Shown here: in pieces, positions 260-41,108 of the stretch
Position numbering within the stretch: the first letter of the stretch is position 1
Layout of the letters: every line of letters starts with the position of its first letter
Assembly (NCBI GenBank): GCA_964637955.1
Contig: CAZWXQ010000001.1
Location: forward strand, 223,447 to 287,446
From: an uncultured Gammaproteobacteria bacterium
GTDB taxonomy: Bacteria > Patescibacteriota > Microgenomatia > Levybacterales > UBA12049
Direction of reading: 5' to 3'
Length of the DNA stretch: 64,000 bases
Notes under the pieces: generated by a model
Told to the model about the DNA's origin: nothing
The model's input: only the letters and a program-made list of their open reading frames with translations
Databases searched by the model: none
Program-made: the position numbers and the translations under genes

Positions 260-565
260 ATGGATGATTTTGTGATCAATTTTAAATCTAGTTTGTGGGT
301 TTGGGATGGCCCAAATCCTTGGTATTTTATAACAGTTCCTGAAAAAGAATCAAAGATTATAAGGGAAAGATTTAGGCATGTTCATAGGGGGTGGGGTTCT
401 GTTCCTGTGACAGTTCAGATAGGTGACAGTACATGGAAAACATCTATATTTTGGGAAAAAGCAGGAACATACATGCTTCCAATTAAAAAAGAAATCAGAA
501 TTAACGAAGATATTAAAGTTGAGCAGAAAATAAAAGTCGCTTTAGAGTTTGAGGAATTGCTTTAA
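260..565 (+). CDS. DUF1905-family small protein
   Basis: 101 aa. Motif pattern (GWGSVPVTVQIGDSTWKTSIF...GTYMLPIKKEIR) matches the DUF1905 fold that is often fused to YdeI/OmdA domains. TATAAT lies 9 nt before the ATG. Confidence 0.55.
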   Translation: MDDFVINFKSSLWVWDGPNPWYFITVPEKESKIIRERFRHVHRGWGSVPVTVQIGDSTWKTSIFWEKAGTYMLPIKKEIRINEDIKVEQKIKVALEFEELL

Positions 566-566
566 A

Positions 567-944
567 TTACTGAGCTGGGGTAGAAGGTGCAGCAGGTTTT
601 GAAGACATCTGTTTTTTTCCACCATATGCGCTACCACCGTATGAAGAAATATCACAGAAAAGTCCAATTCCTATCCAAAGCCAATCCCATCCTGTAATTC
701 CACCTGCAAAACTTGCAACATACATAAGCGTAGTCCATGGGAGAAATGCTACTCCTAATAACCCAAATATTACATTTGGGAAAGCTAGGTTATATCTTGC
801 AGGTTGAAGAAGCCACCAAAATACATTTCCAACTCTTGGGCCACCGATTAATAAAAGTAGAAATCCTAAAAAGAACATAAATAGCAGTATAGCAGTTATA
901 GGCAAATTGTAAAGGCACAAAAAATTATGCCCCCGGAGGGGCAT
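567..944 (-). CDS. small polytopic membrane protein; true start probably at an internal Met
   Basis: Three or four hydrophobic helices. The annotated N-terminus overlaps a perfect 13-bp palindrome (921-950), so the real start is probably the internal Met (MFFLGF...). Confidence 0.4.
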   Translation of the reverse strand: MPLRGHNFLCLYNLPITAILLFMFFLGFLLLLIGGPRVGNVFWWLLQPARYNLAFPNVIFGLLGVAFLPWTTLMYVASFAGGITGWDWLWIGIGLFCDISSYGGSAYGGKKQMSSKPAAPSTPAQ

Positions 945-950
945 AATTTT
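921..950. repeat. perfect 13-bp inverted repeat AAAATTATGCCCC-cgga-GGGGCATAATTTT
   Basis: GC-cored hairpin flanked by A- and T-tracts (bidirectional terminator-like). Overlaps the annotated start of the minus-strand ORF 567-944. Confidence 0.6.
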
Positions 951-1087
951 GTATCATCCTGTGATAACTAATACGCTCTATATTAGGAGTTTATTTAAAA
1001 GCAAACACTAAATGTGTAGTAGTTTGTAAGAATATGTGCAGAATATATCTAATTGCTAACTGATTAGATTGGTACTAGAATCAATTT

Positions 1088-1858
1088 ATGAGCGAAGCAG
1101 ATCCCGGTCAAAAATCTGCTCAGATTTCAGGATCTTTTGATTTATCTAAGCCAGAATTAACACCTCGCCAATTCCAAGCTTTTGATTTTGCGCGAAGTGG
1201 TTGCACTGTCCAGAGCTCAGCTGTTGAACTAGGTGTTGGAGATAGAACTATTGAATATCATCGCTTAGAAGCATTGAAAAGGTTGGGTTTAAATAGCGCA
1301 GCAGATTCAATGGTGGGTTTTGAAAATATATCCGTTGAAATTAGAGAGCCAGATTCTTCATCTCTTGAACCTGTTCCAGTAATAATTCCGATTTATGATA
1401 GTTCATCTTCCTCCTTATCTCCACGACAAAAAGATGTAATAAGTTTAGCTGGAAGCGGGTTATCAAATTCACAAATCGCAGAAAGATTAGGAATTTCTCA
1501 ACACACAGTTGTCCAGCACAGGAGAAGAGCTAGAAGTAAATTGGGTGCAGGAACTATAATGGATGCAGTTTTTATAGCTGTAAGTAAAAGAGAAATTGAT
1601 CCGGAAGATATTGTGCCAGCTGGATTTGATCCAGCCAGATTTAGAAGTTTAAGTCCAAGGCAAAGAGAAGTGTATTGTGCAATAGTTTCAGAAAATGGGT
1701 ATATCCCATATAAAGAGTTAGCTAGAAGATTTGGAATAAAAGAACAGACTTTTAAAAATATAGCAGGTAGGCTATTTAAAAAGTTGGGATTACATGGAAG
1801 AAACCAAGCAGAGGCAGTAAACATTAAAGAAAACCAAGCAGTTATTTTATCGAGCTAG
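1088..1858 (+). CDS. LuxR/GerE-family transcription regulator with three tandem HTH modules
   Basis: Three repeats of L(T/S)PRQ...G.S...IA..LGIS..TV..H...KLG (residues ~25-68, ~110-153, ~188-235). No receiver or ligand domain is visible. Confidence 0.6.
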   Translation: MSEADPGQKSAQISGSFDLSKPELTPRQFQAFDFARSGCTVQSSAVELGVGDRTIEYHRLEALKRLGLNSAADSMVGFENISVEIREPDSSSLEPVPVIIPIYDSSSSSLSPRQKDVISLAGSGLSNSQIAERLGISQHTVVQHRRRARSKLGAGTIMDAVFIAVSKREIDPEDIVPAGFDPARFRSLSPRQREVYCAIVSENGYIPYKELARRFGIKEQTFKNIAGRLFKKLGLHGRNQAEAVNIKENQAVILSS

Positions 1859-2725
1859 TTTAATTTTGCCTGATTTTATGCAGTTCTCGCAGATAATTCC
1901 ATAAACATCATCTTTGCCTTTCCAATAATTCACGAGATTTTCTGAAGTTGCTTCACAGATTCTACATTTGCCGACTACTTTATGATTTTCATCATCAAGA
2001 TTAAATCCCATTGTTTCGCGCCCATCAAAAACTAAGAGTTTGCCTTCGAAATATGTATTGGGATACTTTTCCATAAAAGTCACAATTCCATTTTCGAGTT
2101 GGTAAACATCTTTAAATCCATATTTGATTAATAATCCCGAAGCTGTTTCGCATCTTACGCCGCCGGTGCAGACTGTTACTACGGTTTTATCTTTTAAATT
2201 TGAAATTGATTCAATAGCTTGTGGTACATCGCGGAAATGCCCGAGTCCAGCTGGCCAAATGGAATTTTTAAATCTTCCCACCTCAAATTCATAATCATTT
2301 CGCATGTCTACTACATAAAATTCTCGTCCATTTTCGTACCACTCTTTCAGTTTTTCAGCAGGTAAATGTTTTCCGGTTATAGCGCCACCTTTATTTCCAT
2401 TGACTAACGGACCGAAGTCTTTATTTGGGATTCCTGTGGTTACAATTTCAGGTCTAACTTTTACAGAAAGTTTTCTAAATGCTTTTCCTGTTCCTTCAGA
2501 CTTTTTCCAATTTATTCCTTGGAGTTTGAAATTCTTCTCAGTTAGTTCTATATATTTGTTTGTATTTTCCACGGTTCCTTCAAGCGTTCCGTTTATTCCT
2601 TCCTCAGCAATAATTATTCGTCCCTTTAATCCAAGAGCTTCACAATATGCGCGGTGAATAGTCATGAGTTCCTGCGGTTTCTTAATTTTTACGTACTTAT
2701 AATAAAGTAAAATCTGATATTTCAT
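1847..2725 (-). CDS. trhO: rhodanese-domain tRNA U34 hydroxylase TrhO (UPF0176/YceA family)
   Basis: 292 aa. N-terminal 'YYKY' region, a rhodanese domain with active-site CTGGVRCE, and a C-terminal Cys-rich tail (CRICE...CENC) typical of YceA/TrhO. Confidence 0.8.
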   Translation of the reverse strand: MKYQILLYYKYVKIKKPQELMTIHRAYCEALGLKGRIIIAEEGINGTLEGTVENTNKYIELTEKNFKLQGINWKKSEGTGKAFRKLSVKVRPEIVTTGIPNKDFGPLVNGNKGGAITGKHLPAEKLKEWYENGREFYVVDMRNDYEFEVGRFKNSIWPAGLGHFRDVPQAIESISNLKDKTVVTVCTGGVRCETASGLLIKYGFKDVYQLENGIVTFMEKYPNTYFEGKLLVFDGRETMGFNLDDENHKVVGKCRICEATSENLVNYWKGKDDVYGIICENCIKSGKIKLAR

Positions 2726-2733
2726 GGTTTATA

Positions 2734-3447
2734 TTATAGCCCAGGTTTAGGGTCAATGGAAAGTTCTTGAGTCTCTGTTGCTTGGGGAATCTCAGATTCA
2801 ACCTGAGTAGGCAAGGTATCAACAGGTTTTGCGGTAGTTTCTTTAAAGAATAAAGTTTTCTTTGTAAATGGCCTTTTGCCAGAAGATTCAATTTCAGATT
2901 CTGGAAATCCAAGTAAATTCCAGGTTTCTTCAATTCCTTCAAAGGTAAAATCTCTTGTAGTATTTTCATCTATTCTAAAATGCATTAAGCCATCATCTCC
3001 TCCATATCTTAGCCATAAGCTAAGAGCTTTTAGAAACCACTGATTTATAAGTGCATTCGTAGCATTTGTGGGGAACATTTTAGAAGTCTGAGCTACAAAT
3101 CTTGCTGTATTTGCAGCAAGATTAATAGTAGTTTTAGTATCTGTTTCCATCGTATTTGTATCCAGGTTGAATCTATTTGGATATGGAATCAGGGCAGCAT
3201 CTTTTACCGTTACCGTTAATTCTTCTCCACCAATAGGCTGAACCAGGACTCCTCTGTCAGCAAGAATCCCTGTTTTAATAACTGCTATAGCGGTATCGAC
3301 TGGATCTTTCTTTTCTCCAATTAAATTATCATACACGCTGGATGGCATTTCTAATTTTTGGTCTCCAAGAACTAAAATTTGATCGCGATCTCTATAAAAT
3401 CCTGCATTTATTAATCCATCTGATGGTTGTGGGTTTTCTACGCTCAT
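2734..3447 (-). CDS. hypothetical protein
   Basis: 237 aa ORF co-oriented with and 66 bp downstream of ORF 3514-4125. No recognisable motif. Confidence 0.4.
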   Translation of the reverse strand: MSVENPQPSDGLINAGFYRDRDQILVLGDQKLEMPSSVYDNLIGEKKDPVDTAIAVIKTGILADRGVLVQPIGGEELTVTVKDAALIPYPNRFNLDTNTMETDTKTTINLAANTARFVAQTSKMFPTNATNALINQWFLKALSLWLRYGGDDGLMHFRIDENTTRDFTFEGIEETWNLLGFPESEIESSGKRPFTKKTLFFKETTAKPVDTLPTQVESEIPQATETQELSIDPKPGL

Positions 3448-3513
3448 AAGGAGGGAATTATAGCATAAAAGGTTGATATTTAATTATAAACAAGGGGTTT
3501 AGAGTGCCTTTAA

Positions 3514-4125
3514 TTATTTTGAAGAGTTTGCCATTTGGTATTCGTAACTTGAGACTCTGTTACCGATATCATAAAGTCTTTTTCTTTGATTATAGTCTAA
3601 GTCACCTTCATGTATACCAGCAAGTCTGATTAATACTTGAGCTCTTCTTAATGCTTCGTTTTCTCTAGTAGTTAATTGGTGGTCTTCTCTTTTTTCACCA
3701 TGTCTTAATATGAGTTCAATTCTAGTTGAAATTGATTGAATATCTCCACCGAGTGATGCCATAAGTTCTACTGGAGTTTGAATTGGAGAAGATCCATCGA
3801 GTGGCGTATAGATTGGTTCGCCATTTTGGAATTGCGCTTCTGCTATTAACTCCATAGATTCTTGTACTTGTGATCTACCTAGTCTAACGCCTCTGCCATG
3901 CTCCTTTACTCTATCAAATTGTATTAATGCTTCTGCACTTTGTTGATTTCTTCTAAGATTTTTGTGATCTTGAATAACATTTCTTGCTCCCAATACTCCA
4001 AATACTGCTGCGCTAAGTAATCTTCCTTGAACAAGATCGGCGCCAGCAATACCAAATAATGCTGCATTAAAAGCATCGCTGCTGTAGTTTGCGACAATAT
4101 TTCCTGTTGTTTCTTTAAGTCCCAT
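3514..4125 (-). CDS. hypothetical protein
   Basis: 203 aa ORF, probable operon partner of 2734-3447. No recognisable motif. Confidence 0.4.
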   Translation of the reverse strand: MGLKETTGNIVANYSSDAFNAALFGIAGADLVQGRLLSAAVFGVLGARNVIQDHKNLRRNQQSAEALIQFDRVKEHGRGVRLGRSQVQESMELIAEAQFQNGEPIYTPLDGSSPIQTPVELMASLGGDIQSISTRIELILRHGEKREDHQLTTRENEALRRAQVLIRLAGIHEGDLDYNQRKRLYDIGNRVSSYEYQMANSSK

Positions 4126-4172
4126 AGGCGCATATTATACAATATGTTTGCAAATATTATTTAAATTTAATT

Positions 4173-5497: not shown

Positions 5498-5520
5498 GCC
5501 TCAAATGCTATAATTGCATC

Positions 5521-6039
5521 ATGAATAATATAAATATTTCCGAAGCAGCTCCTGAAGACGCAGTGGGAATTCAAAAAGTTCAAAGAGAAACATGGATGTG
5601 TACTTATCCAAATGAAAAGCTCGGTATAACCCCAAAAGATATTGAAGAAAAATTGGATGAAATGCAGATTGGAGGAATTGAGCGCATGATTGGCTATATT
5701 AATGATAAAAACTCAAGAATATTTGTTGCAAAAGACAAGGACACCGTTGTGGCTTATATTGGCGCATATAAATCAAAAGAAGAGAATAAGCTTGCGGCAT
5801 TGTATGTATTAAGTAGCTATCACAATCAAGGGATTGGGACAAGACTCATGGAAAAAGTTTTAGATTTTCTAGGGGAAGACAAAAAAATAACTCTTGATGT
5901 TACTTCATATAATACGCAAGCAATTGAATTTTATAAGAAATTTGGATTTATAGAAATCGGACCAACGCATTCGAAATATTCTGTTCTACCAAGCGGAAAA
6001 GAGTTGCCAGATATAGGAATGGTAAGATTAGCAGCATGA
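5521..6039 (+). CDS. GNAT-family N-acetyltransferase
   Basis: Acetyl-CoA binding motif region (ALYVLSSYHNQGIGTRLMEKVLDFL...AIEFYKKFGF). TATAAT lies 6 nt before the ATG. Confidence 0.75.
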   Translation: MNNINISEAAPEDAVGIQKVQRETWMCTYPNEKLGITPKDIEEKLDEMQIGGIERMIGYINDKNSRIFVAKDKDTVVAYIGAYKSKEENKLAALYVLSSYHNQGIGTRLMEKVLDFLGEDKKITLDVTSYNTQAIEFYKKFGFIEIGPTHSKYSVLPSGKELPDIGMVRLAA

Positions 6040-7292: not shown

Positions 7293-7320
7293 ATTTATTT
7301 ACCTGCTATAATTTCCTCAA

Positions 7321-7767
7321 ATGAAAAAAGGTGTTGATTACATTGGTGTTGGCGTAGGTGCTGCTTTATTTAAAGATGGAAAAGTTTTCTTGGCTCATCG
7401 TGGTCCAAAAGCCAAAAATGAAAGAAACACATGGGAGATTCCAGGAGGTGGTGTGGAGTTTGGTGAGACATTTGAGAATGCATTGAAGCGTGAAATTAAA
7501 GAAGAGATTGGGGTTGAGATTGAGATAGTAGAGCTTCTTGGAATTTGTGATCATATTATTCCAGATGAAAAGCAACATTGGGTTTCACCTACTTATATTT
7601 GCAAAATAATTAAAGGAGAGCCGAAGATTCTTGAGCCTGAGAAATGTGATCAAATAGGTTGGTTTACTCTAAAAGAAACAGAAAACATGTCTATTTCACT
7701 TGTTACACAGCATGATATTAGAATATTGAAAGAAAAATTCCCAAAAGGTTTGCCTACAGATTTATAG
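7321..7767 (+). CDS. NUDIX hydrolase
   Basis: Nudix box GGGVEFGETFENALKREIKEEIGVEI. TATAAT lies 8 nt before the ATG. Confidence 0.8.
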   Translation: MKKGVDYIGVGVGAALFKDGKVFLAHRGPKAKNERNTWEIPGGGVEFGETFENALKREIKEEIGVEIEIVELLGICDHIIPDEKQHWVSPTYICKIIKGEPKILEPEKCDQIGWFTLKETENMSISLVTQHDIRILKEKFPKGLPTDL

Positions 7768-7785
7768 TGTTATAATCTTCAGGCT

Positions 7786-8139
7786 ATGGAAGACGCTGAG
7801 TTCGAGAAATTATTAATCGAAGCCTTGGATTCACTTCCTCCGCAGTTTGCAAAAAGAATGGAAAATGTTTCAGTTACTTTTGCAGATGAGCCCACTATTT
7901 ATCAACTCAGAAAAATGAAGCTTCCACCATGGGCTTTGATGTTTGGGCTTTATGAGGGTGTTCCGTTGACAAGGAGAAGTGGGAATTATTCAGGTTTTTT
8001 GCCAGATAAGATTACTATTTTTAAAAATGCAATTCTGCGCGTAGCTGATACTCCTGAAAAAATTAAAGCGCAAGTTCGCTCTACAGTTATACACGAGATT
8101 GGTCATCATTTCGGTTTAACTGATGAACAGATGAAATAA
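7786..8139 (+). CDS. small zincin-like metallopeptidase-family protein (PF06262/DUF1025-like)
   Basis: 117 aa with C-terminal HEIGHHFGL (HExxH). Its last 42 bp are duplicated at 8887-8928. Confidence 0.7.
   Translation: MEDAEFEKLLIEALDSLPPQFAKRMENVSVTFADEPTIYQLRKMKLPPWALMFGLYEGVPLTRRSGNYSGFLPDKITIFKNAILRVADTPEKIKAQVRSTVIHEIGHHFGLTDEQMK
8098..8139 (+). repeat. direct repeat, copy 1: native 3' end of the zincin peptidase gene
   Basis: 42 bp. 39/42 nt match 8887-8928 and all three mismatches are synonymous in the zincin reading frame. Confidence 0.85.
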
Positions 8140-8185
8140 GTCCTATAGTTTATTTTCGCCTCAAAATCTGATATAATCTCCTGTT

Positions 8186-8878
8186 ATGTCACCTGATTTT
8201 AGAGAAGCAAAGCTTCCGACAGTTACACTTGAGAGGGCATTGATTGAAACATCAAGTAGTCCAAAAAAGATTTATCGTGGATTAAGTGCAATCGATGTAG
8301 CAAATTTTCAACCTGACATAGATGAAGTTATCAATTACTCATTAATTCATCCTAGTAGACATGAAGCAGCAAAACTAATTTATCTAGATCCTGAAGGAAG
8401 AATCTCATTTTCCAAGTTAATTGAAGGAGGAGAAAATTTTGTAGATACACCAGATCCTGATTTGCGGAGATCAATACTTCTGGGAAGAAGAACAATTGCA
8501 AGAGTGCACAGTCATCCTTTGGGTACAGATTTTAGCTTGAGTGATCTAGCTAGTTTATTGACTAAACCATCATTGCCTGCATCAAATACTGCGAAGTTAT
8601 TAGTAACGCCAGATAGAATATCAATCGCATTTCGAGGTGAAAATACTCCAGGGTTTAGTTTTTATGAAGCGAAGAGATTAGCAGAGAGATTAGATTTATT
8701 ATTAGAAAGATTGATTCAGGAATATAGGACTCCTGAGATAACACAAGAAGAATTTGTTCGACTTGTTTTGGGAATTCACAGATCAGCAATTGAGTCAATG
8801 ATTAGTCAATTCGATATCCAAATTTTTGAAGGCTATAGAAGTGAAAGACTTTTACAAAGAGTTCGTGCAAAAGCATAA
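8186..8878 (+). CDS. hypothetical protein with a JAMM/MPN-like H-x-H...S..D motif; sits inside a repeat-bounded insertion
   Basis: 230 aa. VHSHPLGTDFSLSD resembles the JAMM metal-binding motif (spacing off by one), with Glu upstream. TATAATCTCCTGTT precedes the ATG (leaderless design). Confidence 0.4.
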   Translation: MSPDFREAKLPTVTLERALIETSSSPKKIYRGLSAIDVANFQPDIDEVINYSLIHPSRHEAAKLIYLDPEGRISFSKLIEGGENFVDTPDPDLRRSILLGRRTIARVHSHPLGTDFSLSDLASLLTKPSLPASNTAKLLVTPDRISIAFRGENTPGFSFYEAKRLAERLDLLLERLIQEYRTPEITQEEFVRLVLGIHRSAIESMISQFDIQIFEGYRSERLLQRVRAKA

Positions 8879-9178: not shown

Positions 9179-9484
9179 AATTTCACCTCCTTAGAAATCT
9201 CTTAGTAAACGGAGTGAGCTTTAGAGTTTCTTATACTTAGATCAAAGATCTAAGTATCGAATCTTAATGAACACTCTAACTAAGGATATTAGATTTTCTC
9301 TTAAGTTCAAAACTTAAGAAGAACTGTGACTATATTAACTTTTTAACTGCTAAATGCAGCAAGAGTGAGGTAATAAATTGGTATGAAAAATGGAAAATTT
9401 ATGTCTATGAATAATTTCATACCCAGAGTAATACAACTATTCAAATTTAGTTATTCTGCAGTAAGGCTAACCCATTTTACCTAT

Positions 9485-9513
9485 TGACAGGCCTAGAGTT
9501 AGCATGATATAAA
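9485..9513 (+). promoter_or_regulatory. sigma70-like promoter upstream of rpoB (TTGACA-N17-TATAAA)
   Basis: TTGACA at 9485-9490, a 17-nt spacer, TATAAA at 9508-9513. Confidence 0.5.
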
Positions 9514-9554
9514 CGTATTACTTTAAGACAAAATTCCTTTTTAATTAAAGGGTT

Positions 9555-9578
9555 GATGCACCTGCGTGCATTTTTTTG
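9555..9578 (+). terminator. leader hairpin plus U-tract between the promoter and the rpoB start (putative attenuator)
   Basis: ATGCAC-ctgc-GTGCAT stem-loop followed by TTTTTTT, about 28 nt before the rpoB ATG. No upstream + strand gene for it to terminate. Confidence 0.5.
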
Positions 9579-9605
9579 TCGATATAAACTGCCCGCTATA
9601 ACTAA

Positions 9606-16000: not shown

Positions 16001-16785
16001 GTGACGTGACTCAAGGTTTGCCACGTGTTGAAGAATTATTCGAAATGAGAACACCTAAAGCCCTTTCACCAATCGCAGAGCTTACAGGAAAACTTACTAT
16101 TGAAACAAATGAAGATGGATATCTTCTTAAAGTTACAACTCATAGAAAGCCTGCAGAAGAAAGAGAATATTTTGTTCCACTAGCTTCAAACTTAAACGTA
16201 GAAGATGGTCAGGAAGTTAAAATGGGAACTCAATTTGCACAGGGATACTTAGATCCTAAAGAAGTTCTTAAGATTACAGGACTCTTTGATGCACAGAAGT
16301 ATGTAATAACAGAAGCTCAAAAGGTTTATGAATCACAGGGAATCCCAATTAATGATAAGCATTTTGAAGTAATTCTTAGAAAAATGAGTGATAAAGTAGT
16401 AGTCGAAACAGTTGGAGATACTACGCTCATTCCTGGAGACTTTATTACAAGAACCAGATTTGAGGAAATGAATGCTGAGATTCTAAGTCAGGGTGGAGAG
16501 CCAGCAACTGCAAGACAAACTATTCTTGGAGTAACTAAATCATCTCTATTCTCAGATTCATGGCTTTCAGCTGCATCATTCCAGGAAACAACAAAAGTTC
16601 TCACTGAAGCATCTCTTGAAGGCGCAGAAGACAAGCTTATCGGACTCAAAGAAAATGTTATTATTGGACGACTTATTCCAGTTGCAGGAATTGAACCTGT
16701 TGAAGAAGCAAACAATTTTGTGGAAGTTTCTGCCCCTGCTACACAAGAATCGCCAGTTGAAGCACCAGCTTCAGATGCGGTATAA
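13003..16785 (+). CDS. rpoC: DNA-directed RNA polymerase subunit beta'
   Basis: 1260 aa with the NADFDGDQMAVH catalytic motif and an N-terminal zinc-binding region. Overlaps rpoB by 14 nt. Confidence 0.97.
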   Translation: MDKNKKMKDISILDFQSLKILLAGEKDILEWSYGEVTKPETINYRTLRPEKDGLFDERIFGPTKDWECYCGKYKRIRYRGIICDKCGVEVTLSRVRRERMGHIELAAPVAHVWYFKGSSSSLSLILDMSQKDLESVIYYASYLVTGIEDDKKKKAIEDFAVNIEDRKNKLKKDSETEEADINNEIDEKLKEAAKANEEQKGLMEQELELQRKQRLARISDRVAAESKKIDEISDALMTLVKSLKPGSVLSEDEYFKVLEYDIPVFFTFKTGAEGLLELIQKVNIDDLIVDLRKEVEKSKGQKYLKLIKRLRLLEVIRKAGVAPKDMVYKALPVIPPDLRPMVQLSGGRFATSDLNDLYRRVINRNNRLKHLMSLGAPEIILRNEKRMLQESVDSLIDASQRGTQVVASPLRSLSDMLRGKQGRFRQNLLGKRVDYSGRSVIVVGPDLKLSECGLPKEMALEMFKPFVLREVIVRGFAPNIKSAKRFIEKRPPEVFDILEEITKNHPVLLNRAPTLHKLGIQAFYPKLIEGAAIQLHPCVCKGYNADFDGDQMAVHIPLSDNAQKEAIELMLPRENLLKPADGAPITLPDKEMAIGIFYLTTMDEALRLSEEDQKYFSNINDALLGYSMKIVDLREPIKVKIADEVLETTIGRLMLNEHLPEKLGFINEPIKASGIKKLVTRAMGVANSLEVEELIDRVKTLGFYGSTVSGISVSVFDTALVAEKQEIIDGAEGKISEIDTEYQKGLITNEERKRLSNDVWLKTTEKIADMTWDLLTPGNVIRTIIDSEGARAGKEQLKQLSAMRGLILDPLGKIVELPIKSNFREGLSIFEYVASARGSRKGLTDSALKTANAGYLTRRLVDVSHDMIVREEDCGTKKGVTVVAVDPERTASFADRLVGRTAVEAIIGKDKKTIVKANEEISEEQALEIVRNDIEEAVVRSAITCELRYGICAACYGWDFSVKRRVALGVPVGVVAAQSIGEPGTQLTMRVRHFGGVVMSDVTQGLPRVEELFEMRTPKALSPIAELTGKLTIETNEDGYLLKVTTHRKPAEEREYFVPLASNLNVEDGQEVKMGTQFAQGYLDPKEVLKITGLFDAQKYVITEAQKVYESQGIPINDKHFEVILRKMSDKVVVETVGDTTLIPGDFITRTRFEEMNAEILSQGGEPATARQTILGVTKSSLFSDSWLSAASFQETTKVLTEASLEGAEDKLIGLKENVIIGRLIPVAGIEPVEEANNFVEVSAPATQESPVEAPASDAV

Positions 16786-16836
16786 TACCTATTCAGTAAC
16801 TAGTCATTAGAAGCTAGTTGCTGCTAACTAAAGAAT

Positions 16837-30517: not shown

Positions 30518-30541
30518 GCCCAAAGTCTATAATTATTTACA

Positions 30542-32110
30542 ATGCCCGATTCACCAATACCTTCTGGCGGTTTAAATAGTCAGCTTATTTCATCTACAGC
30601 AGCTCCTGCTGATGATATGACGCATATAACCCAGGAAATGTATAAGAAAAACTCTGAGTTAAACGATAGAAATAAAACCCTAGCCCTACTTAGAAAAATA
30701 GATGAAATTGTTTTAAGTGAAGTAACTGACCCTAAGCATATTTCACAAAATGTATCTAATTTGCTTGTCGAGGAAGAATTTAGATTAATTGCTGTTCTAG
30801 TAAGACATGATTCACTTCTTTCTCCACTCGCGATTGCTACTTCTGAGAAAAATGCAGTCATAAATAGATATGGACCTGATAGATTTCTTGAATCTTCGAT
30901 TTCGTTTCTAGATAAAACAAATATATTAATCAAATCCGTTGATGAAAAAAAGAAAATTGTTTTAGATAGTTTTGTCGGAGTTTTGGGTAAAAGTTTTTCG
31001 CCTGAAGAGGAATCCGGAATCCAAAAGGAGACTGGAGTTAAATCAGTTCTTTTGTACCCTGTGATTGTAAGAAATGAGCCAATTGGACTTCTTATTATTG
31101 GAATTTCTGAAGCAGAGGTAGAGCTCTCGGCATATAAAAGAGATTTGATTGATCGTTTAGCTGGGGTAACTGGAATTGCTCTCGATAATGCACTTCTTTA
31201 TCAGTCCATTCAGGAGGCAAATGTAAGACTTGAGCAGCTGGATAAACTTAAAGATGAGTTCGTATCTTTGGCTTCTCATGAGCTTCGTACTCCTATGACT
31301 GTTATAAAAAGTTATATCTGGATGTTTTTACACAAAAAAGGAGATTCTTTGGAGCCTAAAGAAAGAGAATATTTGGAAAGAGCATATTCCTCAACGGAAA
31401 GACTGATAAAACTTGTTAATGACATGCTTAATGTTTCACGCATTGAATCTGGAAGACTAAAGCTTGAGATGAAAGATCTGGACATAGTAAAACTTGTGAC
31501 AACTATCGTTGAGGAATTGGTCCCAAGAGCTCAAGAATTAGGCTTAAAATTAACGCTAACTAAGCCAACGACCGGCGTAAAAACTTTAAATGGTGACACA
31601 GATAGAATCGAACAAATTCTTATTAATTTTATTGGTAACTCTTTGAAGTTTACTCCTCCTGGAGGCTCGATATTAGTTAAATTAGAAGCTCGGGAATCAG
31701 ATGTCTTGATTAGCATTTCAGATACTGGTCGAGGAATAAAGAAGGAAGATTTGCATAAATTATTCCAGAAATTTGGAATGATAAGTAGCGCTTATCTTCA
31801 AAAGAACATTAATCAAGGTTCAGGTTTGGGCTTGTATCTATCTAAATCTCTTATTGAATTACATGGAGGTCGGGTAAAAGTGGAATCGGCTGGAGAAAAT
31901 AAAGGATCCACGTTTAGTTTCACTATTCCATATAATGAAAATAAACCTCATCAGGAAGCTGATGTATTGCCAGCAGTATCGGGTGCTACTAATGTAGTGG
32001 CCACAGGAGCTGTTGGAGCAATAGAAGCGACTGGAGCCCCTAAAGGAGCTGCGCTTGCAGGGGTTGTTGGTACGACTACTGTGGAATCTTCTTCAGTCGG
32101 AGTTAGATAG
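30542..32110 (+). CDS. cytoplasmic GAF-domain sensor histidine kinase
   Basis: No TM helix. H-box LASHELRTPMTV, N/G1/G2 boxes (ISDTGRGI, GSGLGLYLS). Ala/Gly/Thr/Val-rich 50-aa C-terminal tail. Confidence 0.85.
   Translation: MPDSPIPSGGLNSQLISSTAAPADDMTHITQEMYKKNSELNDRNKTLALLRKIDEIVLSEVTDPKHISQNVSNLLVEEEFRLIAVLVRHDSLLSPLAIATSEKNAVINRYGPDRFLESSISFLDKTNILIKSVDEKKKIVLDSFVGVLGKSFSPEEESGIQKETGVKSVLLYPVIVRNEPIGLLIIGISEAEVELSAYKRDLIDRLAGVTGIALDNALLYQSIQEANVRLEQLDKLKDEFVSLASHELRTPMTVIKSYIWMFLHKKGDSLEPKEREYLERAYSSTERLIKLVNDMLNVSRIESGRLKLEMKDLDIVKLVTTIVEELVPRAQELGLKLTLTKPTTGVKTLNGDTDRIEQILINFIGNSLKFTPPGGSILVKLEARESDVLISISDTGRGIKKEDLHKLFQKFGMISSAYLQKNINQGSGLGLYLSKSLIELHGGRVKVESAGENKGSTFSFTIPYNENKPHQEADVLPAVSGATNVVATGAVGAIEATGAPKGAALAGVVGTTTVESSSVGVR
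31951..32110. other. 160-bp convergent antisense overlap of histidine-kinase and response-regulator coding tails
   Basis: The same GC-rich, GCN/ACN/GTN-codon DNA is open in both orientations and encodes Ala/Gly/Thr/Val/Pro-rich tails on both proteins. Confidence 0.6.
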
Positions 32111-33789: not shown

Positions 33790-33809
33790 GCCTCTGGTAT
33801 AATAGCCAC

Positions 33810-34139
33810 ATGGCAAAAAAGAAACCATCTCCGTTTGGATACTATTTCAAATATCTTGATGAGATCGATAAAGGTAAAAAAGATTCAAAAGAATTCGGTT
33901 CAATACTGATTCTTAGTCTCGTGGAAGAGATTGGAGAGATGAGCCGAGCATATTTGGCAAAACACGGCAGGAAAGGGAGTAATATCGCAGCGCAGGAAGA
34001 TGAAACCTATAGACAAGAACTCGGAGATATTTTGGTCGGAATTCTAAGACTTGCCCGCGTTAAGCATATAAATCTTCACGAAGCCATGATGTATTCGCTA
34101 AAAAAGATAGAGAAAAGAAAAAAAGAACCGAAAAGATAA
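33810..34139 (+). CDS. MazG-like nucleotide pyrophosphohydrolase
   Basis: EEIGEMSRAYL...ELGDILVGILRLA metal-binding helices. TATAAT lies 6 nt before the ATG. Confidence 0.7.
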   Translation: MAKKKPSPFGYYFKYLDEIDKGKKDSKEFGSILILSLVEEIGEMSRAYLAKHGRKGSNIAAQEDETYRQELGDILVGILRLARVKHINLHEAMMYSLKKIEKRKKEPKR

Positions 34140-34140
34140 A

Positions 34141-34169
34141 TTGATAATTTAAGGCTTATAGCGTATAAT
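34141..34169 (+). promoter_or_regulatory. consensus promoter TTGATA-N17-TATAAT, 8 nt before the ATG of ORF 34178
   Basis: Perfect -10 box and a near-consensus -35. Implies a leaderless transcript. Confidence 0.5.
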
Positions 34170-34177
34170 CCTGCAAC

Positions 34178-34675
34178 ATGGCTTTTAAAGGAGAATTACA
34201 AACAATAATACCTGGAGTTACTTGGAGGAGGGAAACTAAGCTTGAGGTAGAAGGTCGCGTAAGTGTTGCAGAATCCAGGCTTGAGACAGCGACTCATGCG
34301 CATATTTCCTCAATGGAAAGATTTACACAAGCTAGTTCGCAAGAAGCTTTAAGCGCTCTGCTTATTCAAAGGCACACTTTTGCTAATCGTGCAAATGCTG
34401 CGTCTTCTAGAGACCTAGATTCCAGGAGGAGGTTGCAATTACACTTAGGTTCTCATCGCATCCCTTTTATTCCTGATTTAAGAGGAATTTTAAAAAGAGA
34501 TAGGAGAATCGAGAATTCACCTTTGAAAACACAGGATGAGGGAATTGATTTTGCAGAATTTGTTCTCGGTGAGGCCGATGAATTTAGTGAAGCTTTGGCT
34601 TTAGGTGGCGATGAAGGATTGAAAGATTTAGTAGTTCAGGATCATGAAATTGCAATAGAGCTTAGATCTGAATAG
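34178..34675 (+). CDS. acidic orphan ORF
   Basis: 165 aa with no minus-strand alternative. GC-richer than the core genes. Coding status unproven. Confidence 0.3.
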   Translation: MAFKGELQTIIPGVTWRRETKLEVEGRVSVAESRLETATHAHISSMERFTQASSQEALSALLIQRHTFANRANAASSRDLDSRRRLQLHLGSHRIPFIPDLRGILKRDRRIENSPLKTQDEGIDFAEFVLGEADEFSEALALGGDEGLKDLVVQDHEIAIELRSE

Positions 34676-34687
34676 TTAAAATATCTC

Positions 34688-34716
34688 TTGACGATGTTTA
34701 AGTATAAAACTATAAT
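34688..34716 (+). promoter_or_regulatory. promoter TTGACG-N17-TATAAT, 6 nt before the ATG of ORF 34723
   Basis: Shares the AAAATAYCTCTTGACGA upstream element with the tuf promoter at 35106. Confidence 0.5.
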
Positions 34717-34722
34717 CCGCTC

Positions 34723-35097
34723 ATGAACCCACATTTAGAAAGATTAGCATCACTTAGTCCTATTAAGTTAAGGCAAGAAAGTCTTTCTTCTGTAACACAT
34801 CGAACATCTACTCAGCTTATGCGATCTGAAGAACTGGATCATGAATTGCAACAGATTTCTTATGTCTCATCTTTTGATCTAGATCCTGAGTTAGAAGAGG
34901 ATGCGCAAGATTTAAGAATTGAAGCAATTGCCTTGGATGAAGCGCTTAGTAAAGGTCCAATAAGGCGGATTGATCTTGTTGTATTTGGACGAAGAGTTAG
35001 GACTGTTCATGAAATTCCTTTATCTGAATCTCGAGACAGAGAGGGAGAGCCGCTTCCTCCTACGCAAGTTTTTCCAGAGCAAGGTCTTAGATATTAA
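34723..35097 (+). CDS. acidic orphan ORF
   Basis: 124 aa. Composition similar to 34178-34675. Confidence 0.3.
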   Translation: MNPHLERLASLSPIKLRQESLSSVTHRTSTQLMRSEELDHELQQISYVSSFDLDPELEEDAQDLRIEAIALDEALSKGPIRRIDLVVFGRRVRTVHEIPLSESRDREGEPLPPTQVFPEQGLRY

Positions 35098-35105: not shown

Positions 35106-35134
35106 TTGACGACTTTTTAGAAATATTGTATTAT
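35106..35134 (+). promoter_or_regulatory. tuf promoter TTGACG-N17-TATTAT
   Basis: Preceded by the AAAATACCTCTTGACGA element repeated from 34678. A 5'UTR of about 35 nt leads to tuf. Confidence 0.5.
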
Positions 35135-35175
35135 GCTTTTACCATCAAAAATAACTGGTGGTATTTTTTTGAATT

Positions 35176-37055: not shown

Positions 37056-37176
37056 TTATTGTACTACTTATAAACATTGAAGTCAACCTATAGTGTATTT
37101 TTGGAATAAACATTGGAATAAACATGCAACTATTCAATAGTTTGACTTTATTATTTGAATACTTTATAGTCCCCAC

Positions 37177-37746
37177 ATGAATATTGTTGAGATAGGTCCG
37201 GGACTTTTACCTATTCACGAGCGTTCCGATGTGGTTAGGGATGCTGTGCGAGCTGGAACGTATACTGCAGTAGAGATATCTAAAGACAAAACGCATCCAT
37301 CAGTATGGGAAATGGTTAATGGGAGATTTATTGAAGCAGATATAAATAGAAGTCTTCCTTTAAAGCGAGAATCCATAGATCAAATATGGTTAATGAATGT
37401 ATTCGGGGGTTTTACTTTTGTGCCAAGAGTTAGCAGAAACGGAAGAACAACGACTTGGAGTTTAGGTTATGATGGGGTATTTCGTAAACTAGCTAGAGCT
37501 GTAAGGCCGGGTGGTCAGATAATTATAGGAGAGACATATACTCCTACTCCGATTGGTAATTTAGATTTTTCAGAATTCGGATTGGAAACAGAATTATTTA
37601 TCGACGAAAGATTTCATGAATTTAAAGAAAGATATGGTTTTCATTCACATGAACATAAATATGAGAGCAAAAGAGAAAAACCTTATTTTCTTGTATTAAC
37701 AAAACCAGATGCACCCACACCTCTTTCCGAAGCGCCCGCATTATAA
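37177..37746 (+). CDS. probable class I SAM-dependent methyltransferase
   Basis: Motif I VEIGPG, acidic end of beta2 (AVEIS), motif II EADI, and VRPGGQIII. TTGACT-N17-TATAGT lies 6 nt before the ATG. Confidence 0.5.
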   Translation: MNIVEIGPGLLPIHERSDVVRDAVRAGTYTAVEISKDKTHPSVWEMVNGRFIEADINRSLPLKRESIDQIWLMNVFGGFTFVPRVSRNGRTTTWSLGYDGVFRKLARAVRPGGQIIIGETYTPTPIGNLDFSEFGLETELFIDERFHEFKERYGFHSHEHKYESKREKPYFLVLTKPDAPTPLSEAPAL

Positions 37747-37828
37747 TACTTCTGAAATAACTGGTCCCAAAAAATATATTCAGTGATTTCTGATTGACAC
37801 TTAGGATAGCCTTGATATAATTGCATTC

Positions 37829-38410
37829 ATGGCTGCAAGAAAAATTATTCAGGCAGGAGATCCTAGGCTTAAATCAATCAATAGAATTATAAGAGATGTT
37901 GATTCTCTTGAGACAAAAAAACTTATCAAGGATCTGACTTCCTCAATGTATAAGGCTGATTTAATTGGAATTGCCTCAAATCAAATCGGAGAAAATCGAA
38001 CTGTATTTCTAACACATCCTAGATCCACAAAAGCCAGAAAATTGGGTAAAACAGATGATTTAAGAGTATATATAAATCCACATTATAACTATGTTTCGCC
38101 GAATCAGAGTCTTATTTATGAAGGTTGTGGTAGTGTGGGAGAAATTTTTGGGCCCGTTTTGCGTCCTAGTGAGATTGAGATTTTTGCATTAAATGAAAAA
38201 GGAGAAAAATTTAGCCTCAGATGTAATGGAATTTTAGCTCGTGTCATTCAGCATGAGATGGATCACTTGAATGGAATAGAGTTTCTTGAGAAAGTTAGTG
38301 ATTACTCAAAAATAATTAACAAAAAGTTTTATAGAAAAAATATTAGGAATTCGCAGCTTCAGATGGAAAACTCTCAAGTTACTAAAATTGATTATTTTTT
38401 GGTAAAATAA
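37829..38410 (+). CDS. def: peptide deformylase
   Basis: Motifs GIASNQIG, EGCGS, QHEMDHLNG. TTGACA-N17-TATAAT lies 7 nt before the ATG. Confidence 0.85.
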   Translation: MAARKIIQAGDPRLKSINRIIRDVDSLETKKLIKDLTSSMYKADLIGIASNQIGENRTVFLTHPRSTKARKLGKTDDLRVYINPHYNYVSPNQSLIYEGCGSVGEIFGPVLRPSEIEIFALNEKGEKFSLRCNGILARVIQHEMDHLNGIEFLEKVSDYSKIINKKFYRKNIRNSQLQMENSQVTKIDYFLVK

Positions 38411-38415
38411 AATAT

Positions 38416-38580
38416 ATGGCAAAGGTAAATCGTGAGTGGCATAAAGAGCACAGAATGCCTAAAAATGCTACAACGCAGCAAAGACTCAAGTGGCATTTGA
38501 TTCATGCCAAAGAATGCGCATGCCGAGAAATGCCCGCCAAGCTTCAGAGGTTAATATCAGATAAATCTACCAAAAAATAA
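38416..38580 (+). CDS. unannotated 54-aa His/Cys-rich small ORF
   Basis: MAKVNREWHKEHRMPKNATTQQRLKWHLIHAKECACREMPAKLQRLISDKSTKK. Paired His and Cys residues suggest metal binding. Fills an otherwise empty 230-bp gap. Confidence 0.3.
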   Translation: MAKVNREWHKEHRMPKNATTQQRLKWHLIHAKECACREMPAKLQRLISDKSTKK

Positions 38581-38686
38581 GTTTTGCTATTCATTAGTTT
38601 TTCTTAGGATTGCCTTTCACTTCACTCAAGTTTTATCCGCTTAGTGCGTTCGGGATCTCCATTCGCTTCGCTCATGGTGTATAATT

Positions 38687-39120
38687 TTCTCATGAAGATT
38701 CAACAAGGTGCAGTGAGCGCCATAATTCTGGATGAAGACGACCAGATTTTATTCTTAAGAAGATCTAAAACTGATGATTTTATGCCTGGAAGTTGGGATA
38801 TTCCAGGTGGTGGCCTGGATTATGGCGAGGAGCCGGAGGCAGGTTTGAGGCGTGAAGTGATGGAAGAAACTGGCCTAAAAATTGAAATACTTGAAATTTT
38901 AACAGTAAGTACTTATTTTATGGGCGAAGTCCAGAGGATAGAAATTACATATCTTTGCAACGCAATTGATGAACATAGATTGAAATTAAGTAGTGAGCAT
39001 ACTGACTATGCATGGATTTGGGCAGGAGAAAGCGAAAGGATTAGTTCATTGAATCTTAATAGTTATATTCAAAAAATTGCTGATATTGCCATAAAAATTG
39101 CAATAGAAAGATCTTTTTAA
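38687..39120 (+). CDS. NUDIX hydrolase (start moved to the ATG 6 nt after TATAAT)
   Basis: Nudix box GGGLDYGEEPEAGLRREVMEETGL. The 38644 start in the ORF track would place the -10 box inside the coding region. Confidence 0.75.
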
Positions 39121-39162
39121 TTAGCTTTAATCTCGAGGCTAAATGCGGTATAATCTCCTCTC

Positions 39163-39738
39163 ATGTCATTTGAAAGATTTAGAATATATAGCTCTTCTGA
39201 TTCCGGTTATTATACAAGGGGAAAAGAAAAACCTAGGCCATTATTAACGGACGAATTTGCGCAACAAATTTTTGCTGTAAGTCAGCATCTTGATGATGAA
39301 TTGCCTGTGGCGAGTCTAATAGCATATTCAGAAGATAAGAGGAAATTATTTAAAAACCAGATAGCAAGGGAGATAGCCATAAGAAATGGTCGTGCAAAAA
39401 ATATACCAAGCTCAAACCTTGAGCAGATAGAAAATAATGCTTTGGCAATTGATGCTTTAAAGTTAAGATTGGGTCGATTAGATTCGCTTCCTTTAGCTCC
39501 AGACATATGGGCCGATTTGTTTATACCCGGATCTGAAATTGAGCTTGATATTCCTCAAAAAAAAGTTTTGATGGATGCTATAACTGGCACGCTAAAGATT
39601 CCAAATGCAAAATTTACAAATAAATGGGTGGATTCTCAAAATACTGTTTACAATTTAAGATTAATCGATGATTCTTCGGAATTTCCACAAGACCCAAGGC
39701 TACCTCGTACAAGAATATTTCTAGCAAAAGCATTTTAA
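39163..39738 (+). CDS. hypothetical protein
   Basis: 191 aa. GGTATAATCTCCTCTC-ATG is almost identical to the element before ORF 8186. Confidence 0.35.
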   Translation: MSFERFRIYSSSDSGYYTRGKEKPRPLLTDEFAQQIFAVSQHLDDELPVASLIAYSEDKRKLFKNQIAREIAIRNGRAKNIPSSNLEQIENNALAIDALKLRLGRLDSLPLAPDIWADLFIPGSEIELDIPQKKVLMDAITGTLKIPNAKFTNKWVDSQNTVYNLRLIDDSSEFPQDPRLPRTRIFLAKAF

Positions 39739-39798
39739 TAATTTTAATTTCAAAAAACATATTGCTTTTATAACTAAAAGCCAATATAATTTCCCCTT

Positions 39799-40254
39799 GT
39801 GACTAATAAAGAGAGTTTAAAATCTAAAATAGAATTTAACCCTCATGATAATCCGGATAGCTATTTTGCAGAACTTACTTCATGGGAAATTGCTGACAAT
39901 ACTTTAATGTTTGCCAGATCAGCTGAATTAAGTCCTGAGGATAAGGCTAAGGGATTAAGAAGGACTGTTCAGGCAAGCTTTGAATATGAAGGCGAGCATA
40001 TAGGAATGATTTTTGAGGCTGTTGGTAAAAATCCAGATAGAATAATTATTCAGGGAGGAAGTCTTGCAGAGGGTCATGAAAATCCTACTATGTTTAATTA
40101 TGTAATAACCAAAGGGGCTGTAGTGAATGGCTCAGAAGCTGAGGTCAGCAAAGATGAGCAATCTAGAGTTAAGTCTTTATTAGCTCGTGCAAATCTGCAA
40201 ATTGCTATTCGAAATCCATTTCATGATTCCTCAAAAACTTCTCAGTCTGCATAA
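39799..40254 (+). CDS. hypothetical protein (GTG start in the ORF track)
   Basis: 151 aa. TATAAT lies 8 nt upstream. Start codon uncertain. Confidence 0.3.
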   Translation: MTNKESLKSKIEFNPHDNPDSYFAELTSWEIADNTLMFARSAELSPEDKAKGLRRTVQASFEYEGEHIGMIFEAVGKNPDRIIIQGGSLAEGHENPTMFNYVITKGAVVNGSEAEVSKDEQSRVKSLLARANLQIAIRNPFHDSSKTSQSA

Positions 40255-40280
40255 TATTATGCTTGCAGATAAGATTAGCT

Positions 40281-41108
40281 CTACGAAGATTTAAAGTAGC
40301 CACCGGTAGCTATTTCTTCAAGTTTGGCAACTCCAGCAAGTAATGTTAATTGGCTATCAACATGATCTAAATTTTTGGGAGTAAGTCTGTGACTTGTTTC
40401 AGTTATAACTCTATCAATTAATGGGCCAGTTGTTTTGGAGCTTCTTCCTAATATTTTTTCGCGCTTCGAATATTGTAATTCTGTAGCATTTCCCGGAGCC
40501 CTAAAATACATTATTTCATCAGATGGTCTATTTAAAGTAATCAAATTTCGAAAGTATCCTGATTTATCTACTCCTCTTAGGGATGTATAGGCGGATAGCA
40601 TTGCTTCTGATACGGCCTTTTCAAGGCCGCCATCGTGAGTTGCTTTTAGGAAATTCATTATTGGACTAAATAAAGCTATATATAGATCATTGCTTGAAAA
40701 ACTTCTTTTGGAATTTGTGAGTGATACTTTTAAGCCTTGCTGAATTTCTGATGAACATTCAACTTCAGCTTCGTTTAGTGTCGAAAACAGCAATCCTAAA
40801 GTAGCAGCGACTGCAAAACCTTCTACATCATCATTCGTTTTTAATTGAGGTAGATCTGCTTGAAAAATTACCCATTCAGGATTTTGAATCCCAGTATCTT
40901 TTAGAACAGGACCAAATCCCCATTCTCTATCAGGATTGGGTGGAGTAAATATTCTAGGTAAGTCTAGTCTTTCTCTAATACTATCTGTTTGCTCTGCTTG
41001 GAAATCTGAAGCAGAAGGAATAATTGATTTGTTAACTGCGACTTGAATCGCGCCTGGCTCTGCAGCTAAGCGGTATCTTGCTGGACTTCCTTCGGTAAGC
41101 TTGCTCAT
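40281..41108 (-). CDS. hypothetical protein
   Basis: 275 aa. Minus-strand TTGATT-N17-TATAAT lies 5 nt before the ATG. Local similarity to ORF 8186 (FRAPGNATELQYSKRE vs FRGENTPGFSFYEAKR). Confidence 0.4.
   Translation of the reverse strand: MSKLTEGSPARYRLAAEPGAIQVAVNKSIIPSASDFQAEQTDSIRERLDLPRIFTPPNPDREWGFGPVLKDTGIQNPEWVIFQADLPQLKTNDDVEGFAVAATLGLLFSTLNEAEVECSSEIQQGLKVSLTNSKRSFSSNDLYIALFSPIMNFLKATHDGGLEKAVSEAMLSAYTSLRGVDKSGYFRNLITLNRPSDEIMYFRAPGNATELQYSKREKILGRSSKTTGPLIDRVITETSHRLTPKNLDHVDSQLTLLAGVAKLEEIATGGYFKSS

Follow-up and report, generated by a model that had tools for sequence, protein, structure and literature searches.

The stretch analysed here, a 64-kb window with a GC content of 36%, carries rpoB-rpoC-rpsL-rpsG, fusA, tuf-rpsJ and the S10/spc/alpha ribosomal-protein (r-protein) cluster, with many small, mostly hypothetical genes interspersed. 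We studied what lies directly upstream of its start codons, namely a -10 promoter box, a Shine-Dalgarno (SD) site or neither. Its RpoB is up to 87-88% identical to those of Candidatus Levybacteria/Levyibacteriota metagenome-assembled genomes (Microgenomates, Candidate Phyla Radiation (CPR)/Patescibacteria), and we assign the window to a Candidatus Levybacteria genome. Loss of uL30 throughout the CPR is on record (PMC9297842), and the window is consistent with a CPR source because no uL30 gene lies between rpsE and rplO, where rpsE overlaps the rplO start (51670-52603). A preliminary description of the window had proposed two designs of translation initiation, with accessory genes leaderless behind a TATAAT box 6-9 nt before the ATG and r-protein genes led by SD sites. 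The large class of genes with a -10 box at the ATG and without an SD site was confirmed, as were GGAGG-type SD sites in r-protein operons; the divide between accessory and r-protein genes was not.

Position and identity of the -10 boxes

We curated 86 gene starts on both strands, later enlarged to 88, and inspected the 50 nt before each of them and before every gene named in the preliminary description. In what follows, the gap is the number of nucleotides between the -10 hexamer and the start codon, and a near-consensus box has at least five of six matches to TATAAT. An exact TATAAT at a gap of 6-9 nt precedes 19 of the 86 curated starts, compared with one of 1993 other ATGs (binomial p 1e-44). 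When boxes with at least 5/6 matches are counted, the figures are 27/86 starts and 2.4% of controls (p 5e-23). Other gap windows contain 0-3 genes each. Shuffling the 40 nt before each of the 88 starts, with dinucleotides preserved, yielded 0.5 +/- 0.7 exact boxes (maximum 3 in 1000) and 4.8 +/- 2.1 near-consensus boxes, against 19 and 28 observed. The 28 leaderless-type starts consist of 19 exact and 9 near-consensus boxes at gaps of 6-9, and none has an SD core of at least 4 nt at -18 to -4, as had been claimed for this class. Both strands of the window together hold 100 TATAAT sites; 25 are fully intergenic, and 18 of these lie 6-9 nt from a start.

The same spacing was found in a comparison set of 80 related loci (1.37 Mb in total, all from Levybacteria-like genomes). 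Around rpoB, only rpoB, rpoC, rpsL and rpsG are widely syntenic among these loci, and we adopted an orthology-free scan with clustering because the accessory genes have few orthologues there (1-8 each). This start-agnostic scan, for TATAAT, a gap, ATG and an open reading frame (ORF) of at least 80 aa, peaked in the related loci at gaps of 6-10 (47/33/25/27/21 hits) over a background of about 3-5. With the window included, 170 hits represent 85 unrelated protein clusters from 60/81 sequences, and the family-wide modal gap is 6. At gaps of 6-9 the start codons are ATG in 150 cases and GTG in 15, and TTG stays at background level. The TATAAT-to-ATG spacing singled out in the preliminary description is enriched over background both in the window, by controls and shuffles, and in the 80 loci. 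A further peak in the related loci, TATAAT-N21-ATG, was rejected as a coding artefact of the RpoC active-site codons (GYNADFDGDQM), repeated by common descent; it occurs at 14629-14658 of the window and in rpoC of 23 related loci, and produces a false peak in the spacing histogram. An in-frame TATAAT-N7-ATG inside hyp82 (9070, minus strand), within a transmembrane helix, was taken as chance.

The boxes also carry other marks of promoters. When 85 cluster representatives were compared with 1185 other TATAAT sites, an extended TGn element was present in 35% versus 7% (p 3e-12), a TTG at -35 with a 16-18-nt spacer in 34% versus 10% (p 5e-9), and a C-rich discriminator, with two or more C among the 4 nt that follow the box, in 41% versus 21% (p 3e-5). 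The last figure makes the TATAATC(T)CC element noted earlier a family-wide tendency; the two TATAATCTCC strings quoted for it were found at 8172 and 39149. The position before the A of the ATG is a pyrimidine in 71% of the 85 representatives, and a Y-1/R+1 start preference has been described for bacterial RNA polymerase (PMC12641261). Transcription start sites (TSSs) centre 7 nt past the -10 box in 49 mapped bacteria (PMC12641261), which the family-wide modal gap of 6 fits. In the window, TTGACA-like hexamers cluster 34-38 nt before start codons (12 versus 2.6 expected, p 2e-5), and six further genes (starts 4829, 6852, 20793, 29418, 32560 and 41227) combine a strong -35 at leaderless distance with a weak -10.

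Seventeen genes had been named as having a box 6-9 nt before the ATG, and 14 of them have an exact TATAAT (260, 5521, 7321, 7786, 8186, 33810, 34178, 34723, 37829, NUDIX-b, 39163, 41108 and 18832 on the minus strand, and 18941). The LuxR gene (1088) and the gene at 37177 have near-consensus boxes (TAGAAT, TATAGT) with good -35 elements in place of an exact TATAAT; a Pfam search gave no methyltransferase domain for the 37177 product, contrary to its earlier label. ORF 36720 (minus; hyp111, start 37055) does not fit, its TTGACT-N17-TACAAT ending just 2 nt before the ATG. The NUDIX start placed at 38687 had to be moved to the ATG at 38692, separated by a gap of 6 from the TATAAT at 38680-38685; an independent gene call places the start there too (142-aa product). 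Cases that had not been listed are 2725, 3447, 4125 and 29363 on the minus strand, 30542, 22346, 38416, rpoA (57780) and two GTG starts (39799 and 19919).

Several observations bear on whether translation truly starts at these codons. In the UPF0176, DUF1905, NUDIX, Def and AlaRS products the Pfam domain sets in between residues 3 and 10. Apart from NUDIX-b (in-frame GTG upstream at 38644), no ORF has a start codon before the one used, and gene calls in a public collection agree with the assigned starts. The layout is also conserved. The alaS gene has a -10 box at a gap of 6-11 in 34/38 Levybacteria loci (an exact box in 30, mostly TGCTATAAT), with flanks that cannot be aligned; nth has the layout in 7/7 loci; and orthologues of the zincin, UPF0176, MazG and hyp312 genes retain it. 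Other genes of leaderless type in relatives are rpsL, lepA, an M24 peptidase (map-like), IMPDH, alanine racemase and a class II aminoacyl-tRNA synthetase. An AlaRS homologue search returned the same clade, with identity down to about 54% among the 120 matches listed; the three AlaRS contigs examined all have a Levybacteria-like neighbourhood (rpoB nearby) and TGCTATAAT-N6-9-ATG. The AlaRS of this clade (L035, P0001-P0120) is only about 595-700 aa long in full-length matches, with just the tRNA-synt_2c and tRNA_SAD domains detected.

For rpsL, 20/62 loci are of leaderless type, and others have either TATAAT with a 14-25-nt leader containing GGAGG or a long AT-rich leader as in the window. With three layouts among relatives (close relatives compared: L036, L050, L054, L006 and L051 versus L017, L027, L029 and L032), the design can therefore switch for one gene. 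This amounts to evolutionary toggling of a single gene between leaderless, short SD-led and long SD-less forms.

Operon position and a third type of start

What divides the classes is position in the transcription unit, not gene function. Of the 28 genes of leaderless type, 25 either diverge from their neighbour, lie 16 nt or more away from it, or sit at the window edge. Strong SD sites precede 12/88 starts (4.5% at control ATGs), and ten of these genes lie at most 15 nt past the previous gene (rpoC, rplD, rpsS, rplP, rpmC, rplN, rplX, rplO, map and rplM); the remaining two are adk and hyp82. A leaderless-type box and an SD site never occur on the same gene, and the split at an intergenic distance of at most 15 nt gives a Fisher p of 2e-5. 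The apparent contrast between accessory and r-protein genes arises because accessory genes are mostly single-gene units and r-protein genes lie mostly inside long operons. It fails for def and rpoA, which are of leaderless type here, and for rpsL and alaS in relatives. The earlier SD assignments held for rpsS (AAGGAG), rplX (GAGGTG) and gene 8930 (TAAGGAGGTGA), and that of rpsC is imperfect (AAGGGGG). Gene 8930 is hyp82, which encodes an 82-aa membrane protein (8930-9193, minus strand) and has the longest SD in the window.

The leaderless-type genes are also compactly placed. Twelve of them begin 5-47 nt past a preceding co-directional gene, and that gene contains their -35 region and sometimes the -10 box as well. 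Five TATAAT boxes include the upstream TAA stop (2733-2738 and 28454-28459 on the minus strand, 16781-16786, 17747-17752 and 37742-37747).

Two designs do not suffice, as 40/88 genes show neither an SD site nor a box; about one r-protein gene in two lacks even an SD-like site, and the first genes of translation units are leadered and SD-less. In the window these are rpoB, rpsL, fusA, tuf, rplC, infA and rplQ, each with a recognisable promoter 35-126 nt upstream, followed by a hairpin, a U/A-rich unpaired tract and the ATG (Table 1). The idea that translation genes behave differently in the window is thus rescued in part, yet their first genes are not SD-led. We had considered tuf, fusA and rpsJ as leaderless genes with weak T-rich boxes, and dropped them for upstream promoters and hairpin leaders. 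The hairpins often precede a U-run and look terminator-like, with fold z-scores reaching -4.1 (infA) and -2.9 (rpsL); they and the tracts could be attenuators, 5' stabilisers or S1-type enhancers. Rfam at gathering thresholds matched no known leader or RNA in the window. About 90 nt ahead of its ATG, the rplC leader contains AGGAGGTGAT (43590-43599), which agrees with the canonical SD consensus over 10 nt and has no usable start codon after it. This element might serve as a decoy or a standby site, or be left over from an rpsJ start.

Table 1 Promoter boxes, leaders and SD sites at start codons of the window
Feature	Coordinates	Strand	Description
DUF1905 gene	245..262	+	TGtTATAAT (245-250), 9-nt spacer ttctccagg, ATG 260; Pfam DUF1905 from residue 8
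LuxR/GerE gene	1053..1090	+	TTGCTA-N17-TAGAAT (1076-1081)-N6-ATG 1088; near-consensus
UPF0176/rhodanese gene	2723..2738	-	TATAAT (2733-2738)-N7-ATG 2725; box includes TAA stop of upstream gene 2734-3447; matching layout in 4 related loci; Pfam UPF0176_N from residue 3
hyp237	3445..3462	-	TGcTATAAT-N9 (tccctcctt)-ATG 3447
hyp203	4123..4139	-	TATAAT-N8-ATG 4125; within 47-nt divergent intergenic region
GNAT gene	5509..5523	+	TGcTATAAT-N6-ATG 5521; upstream gene just 23 nt away
NUDIX-a	7307..7323	+	TGcTATAAT-N8 (ttcctcaa)-ATG 7321; 28-nt intergenic gap
Zincin_1 gene	7771..7788	+	TGtTATAAT-N9-ATG 7786; 18-nt intergenic gap, -35 region within upstream gene; 7 related loci keep the layout, gap 8-10
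hyp230	8172..8188	+	TGaTATAAT-CTCCTGTT-ATG 8186
SD of hyp82	9179..9193	-	TAAGGAGGTGA, + strand TCACCTCCTTA at 9183-9193; 4 nt before ATG 9178
rpoB leader	9484..9605		TTGACA 9484-N18-TATAAA
rpsL leader	16757..16836		TATAAT 16781
hyp182	18830..18846	-	TATAAT-N8-ATG 18832
hyp312	18903..18943	+	TTGAAG-N17-TATAAT (18926-18931)-N9-ATG 18941; gap 9 kept in 4 related loci
hyp65 (65 aa)	19883..19921	+	TTGACA-N17-TATATT-N7-GTG 19919; GTG leaderless candidate
hyp500	20757..20795	+	TTGACA-N17-TACTTT-N7-ATG 20793; strong -35, weak -10
fusA leader	22921..22970		TGgTATACT 22921-22929
Histidine kinase	30528..30544	+	TATAAT-N8-ATG 30542
MazG	33798..33812	+	TGgTATAAT-N6-ATG 33810; 20-nt intergenic gap; gap 6 kept in L016, L021
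hyp165	34141..34180	+	TTGATA-N17-TATAAT-N8-ATG 34178
hyp124	34688..34725	+	TTGACG-N17-TATAAT-N6-ATG 34723
tuf leader	35106..35175		TTGACG 35106-N17-TATTAT
hyp189	37142..37179	+	TTGACT-N17-TATAGT-N6-ATG 37177
def (peptide deformylase)	37794..37831	+	TTGACA-N16-TGaTATAAT (37816-37821)-N7-ATG 37829; Pfam profile position 2 = residue 4
hyp54 small ORF	38403..38418	+	TGgTAAAAT (overlaps def stop)-N7-ATG 38416; independent pipeline calls a 54-aa gene
NUDIX-b	38680..38694	+	TATAAT-N6 (tttctc)-ATG 38692
hyp191	39149..39165	+	TATAAT-CTCCTCTC-ATG 39163
hyp151	39785..39801	+	TATAAT-N8 (ttcccctt)-GTG 39799; GTG leaderless candidate
hyp275	41106..41122	-	TATAAT-N8-ATG 41108
rplC leader	43533..43687		TATAAT 43556
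rplD, SD example	44583..44603	+	AAGGAG 6 nt before ATG 44601; operon-internal
Starts with rplD-type SD		+	rpoC 13003, rpsS 46456, rplP 47842, rpmC 48253, rplN 48919, rplX 49295, rplO 52163, adk 53915, map 55140, rplM 59319
infA	55911..55998	+	TTGATC-N17-TGaTATAAT (55934-55939), about 55-nt untranslated region with hairpin and U-tract, ATG 55996; leader 55911-55995
rpoA	57743..57782	+	TTGAAT-N17-TGaTACAAT (57766-57771)-N8-ATG 57780; internal promoter, 17 nt past rpsD

Probable leaderless transcription and its alternatives

The combination of these features makes it very probable that most genes with their own promoter in this Levybacteria genome are transcribed as leaderless or near-leaderless mRNAs. 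The position of the boxes, the promoter elements that accompany them, the absence of SD sites, the start-codon preference, the dependence on operon position and the conservation in orthologues are observations; from them we infer the exact TSS and the mechanism of translation. A sigma-70-type promoter directly upstream of the start, with TATAAT, often a TGn and/or a -35 TTG across a 17-nt spacer, and a pyrimidine/C-rich discriminator, would direct RNA polymerase to initiate at the A of the ATG or 1-4 nt earlier. The 5'-terminal AUG (rarely GUG) would then recruit the ribosome without SD pairing, via the leaderless pathway of other bacteria. Operon-internal genes would be barred from this route and would use a GGAGG-type SD or coupling. 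The first genes of translation operons in the window would follow a third route, in which a 5' hairpin and a U/A-rich tract free of SD sites form the leader. With many promoters nested in the last codons or the stop of the preceding gene, closely packed genes could be independent units.

Some observations weigh against this reading. The -35 element is weak in most cases, only 31% matching at least 4/6 positions. The modal gap in the window is 8, with gaps of 9-10 as well, so some transcripts may have 1-4-nt leaders; a TSS at the start codon itself is inferred, and gaps of 8-10 nt may leave leaders of 0-4 nt. Leaders of 1-4 nt are conventionally still classed as leaderless (PMC4007540). Few terminators separate the tightly packed genes, which makes read-through from upstream possible. 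Judged by the shuffles, chance would account for about 5 of the 28 near-consensus calls, and those for GrpB and rplF are doubtful. Finally, a generic scan of positions 1-20000 for -35/-10 pairs and terminators gave counts not above shuffles in this AT-rich DNA (58 versus 63 expected for -35/-10), and the information therefore lies in the position of the box, not in promoter-likeness as such.

That generic scan, equal in real and shuffled sequence, and the GC content of the window are what could be said for the view that TATAAT and ATG coincide by chance where intergenic DNA is AT-rich. We regard this possibility as negligible: the 19 exact boxes compare with 0.04 expected from other ATGs and with the shuffle values given above, and the layout is kept in orthologues with diverged flanks, by which chance is already refuted. 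One could also imagine that the box acts in RNA and not as a promoter: on leadered or polycistronic transcripts it would be a ribosome-binding or enhancer element, A/U-rich and not of SD type, much like the motifs of GeneMarkS-2 group B genomes. Strong SD sites are few in this AT-rich genome, and many boxes lie 18-47 nt past the previous gene without a terminator, so that read-through transcripts containing the box probably exist. However, the motif is the exact sigma-70 -10 hexamer, accompanied by TGn and by TTG/TTGACA at 16-18 nt, which would be meaningless in RNA. With three exceptions it is missing before genes at most 15 nt past their neighbour, whereas the motifs of GeneMarkS-2 group B also precede internal genes (PMC6028130), and TATAAT with a -35 also occurs 15-126 nt upstream of the leadered rplC, infA, rpsL and hyp378, where only a promoter role fits. 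We therefore consider an RNA-level element highly improbable.

Real promoters would also be compatible with start codons further downstream, in which case the genes would have ordinary 5' untranslated regions and their leaderless look would stem from the choice of the first ATG. The proteins are indeed mostly hypothetical, with starts assigned from ORFs, and in hyp111 the box is too near the first ATG, with a second ATG at codon 5. Nevertheless, the Pfam profiles align from residues 3-10 in the proteins with known domains, AlaRS and S12 are conserved from residue 1 in dozens of orthologues, the enrichment is confined to ATGs that open long ORFs at gaps of 6-10, and the first codons have no SD site; we give downstream starts even less credit than an element acting in RNA. 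A rule by function, in which accessory genes are leaderless and r-protein genes SD-led, likewise appears highly unlikely. No r-protein or translation-factor unit in the window has a leaderless-type first gene, and the 12 strong SD sites precede r-protein genes apart from hyp82, adk, map and rpoC. Against this rule stand not only def and rpoA here but also alaS, rpsL, nth, lepA, map, IMPDH, alanine racemase and the class II aminoacyl-tRNA synthetase in relatives; about half of the r-protein genes lack an SD, and operon position accounts for the split. Deinococcus deserti, moreover, has both types in all COG classes (PMC4007540).

Relation to known systems and other features of the locus

The leaderless transcriptome of D. 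deserti, mapped at the level of TSSs (de Groot et al. 2014, PMC4007540), offers a close comparison. There, as here, leaderless genes have no SD site, SD sites being found on leadered ones, the -35 is weak or absent, and ATG far exceeds GTG with essentially no TTG (83%, 17% and 0.3% of its TSS-verified start codons). Leaderless genes fall into all functional classes, translation included, and likewise here. In contrast, D. deserti is GC-rich and its case is backed by TSS mapping and proteomics, whereas the present one is known from sequence alone. Particular to the present case by this comparison are the near-perfect TATAAT, the frequent TGn, the C/pyrimidine-rich discriminator, and promoters nested in the 3' ends and stop codons of neighbours in a very compact genome.

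The predicted architecture is that of GeneMarkS-2 group C, all of whose sequence-testable defining features are found here. This group comprises mainly Actinobacteria (e.g. Mycobacterium tuberculosis) and Deinococcus-Thermus (Lomsadze et al. 2018, PMC6028130), and leaderless genes have been reported for Mycobacterium in work cited there (PMC6028130). As in group C, first genes of operons have a Pribnow box 6-8 nt upstream and the others a ribosome-binding site (RBS); 25-50% of group C operons are predicted to be leaderless (PMC6028130), compared with about 46-57% of promoter-proximal genes here. Unlike in group C, even internal genes make little use of SD sites here, and leadered genes without SD form a prominent class. 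Group B, e.g. Bacteroidetes (PMC6028130), resembles the window in that 40/88 genes here have neither SD nor -10 box and follow A/U-rich sequence. Its motifs, however, are not promoters and precede first and internal genes alike (PMC6028130), whereas TATAAT here has -35 and TGn features and appears only where a gene has its own upstream space. In archaeal group D (Haloferax, Sulfolobus), transcription starts at the start codon in most transcription units, as is predicted here, but with a TATA box about 26 nt upstream and a different transcription machinery.

In our literature search we found no paper reporting leaderless genes in CPR/Patescibacteria, Saccharibacteria or Microgenomates. CPR/Patescibacteria are not mentioned in the main text of the GeneMarkS-2 paper (PMC6028130), and a survey of CPR ribosomes treats anti-SD loss only in some Parcubacteria (PMC9297842). 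An uncultured lineage with ultra-small genomes thus probably leans heavily on SD-independent, leaderless initiation, core genes included, and a low-GC CPR clade would join the few bacterial groups known to have this architecture, which have been chiefly Actinobacteria and Deinococcus-Thermus. Such an addition would bear on the ideas that leaderless initiation is ancestral or is favoured by a reduced translation machinery. In practice, starts and transcription units in Levybacteria could be called by seeking TGnTATAAT 6-10 nt before an ATG. One can speculate, tentatively and with more doubt than confidence, that promoter-proximal genes throughout Levybacteria, and possibly in the wider Microgenomates/CPR, are leaderless by default, core genes such as alaS, nth, lepA, def, rpoA and often rpsL among them. 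Their promoters would be nested in the final codons or the stop of the gene before, and a lineage-typical TGnTATAAT-YCC core would fix the start at the A of the ATG. If so, it would be a genome-streamlining strategy of ultra-small bacteria with reduced ribosomes, the CPR would be the third major bacterial lineage with a leaderless-dominated transcriptome, and many CPR gene starts would be better predicted from promoters than from RBS sites.

Several other features of the locus were observed. Between 9606 and 60287, the rpoBC-str-S10-spc-alpha supercluster is broken up by blocks of mostly hypothetical, mostly leaderless-type genes, in the order rpoB-rpoC-rpsL-rpsG, 17771-22885, fusA, 25183-35097, tuf-rpsJ, 36720-43516 and rplC onward, so that rpsJ is placed with tuf and not with rplC. 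The TAA of hyp65 abuts the ATG of an OmdA-family gene at 20117 (TAAATG; 19919-20119), which suggests translational coupling; OmdA genes of the relatives L002, L003 and L008 start at a TATAAT-N6-ATG of their own. The histidine kinase ORF (30542-32110, plus strand) and a response regulator ORF (31951-32469, minus strand) overlap convergently by 160 nt (31951-32110). Lastly, L3 and L4 (43688-45395) are unusually long, at 308 aa and 264 aa respectively, and L4 has a K/A-rich extension at its N-terminus.

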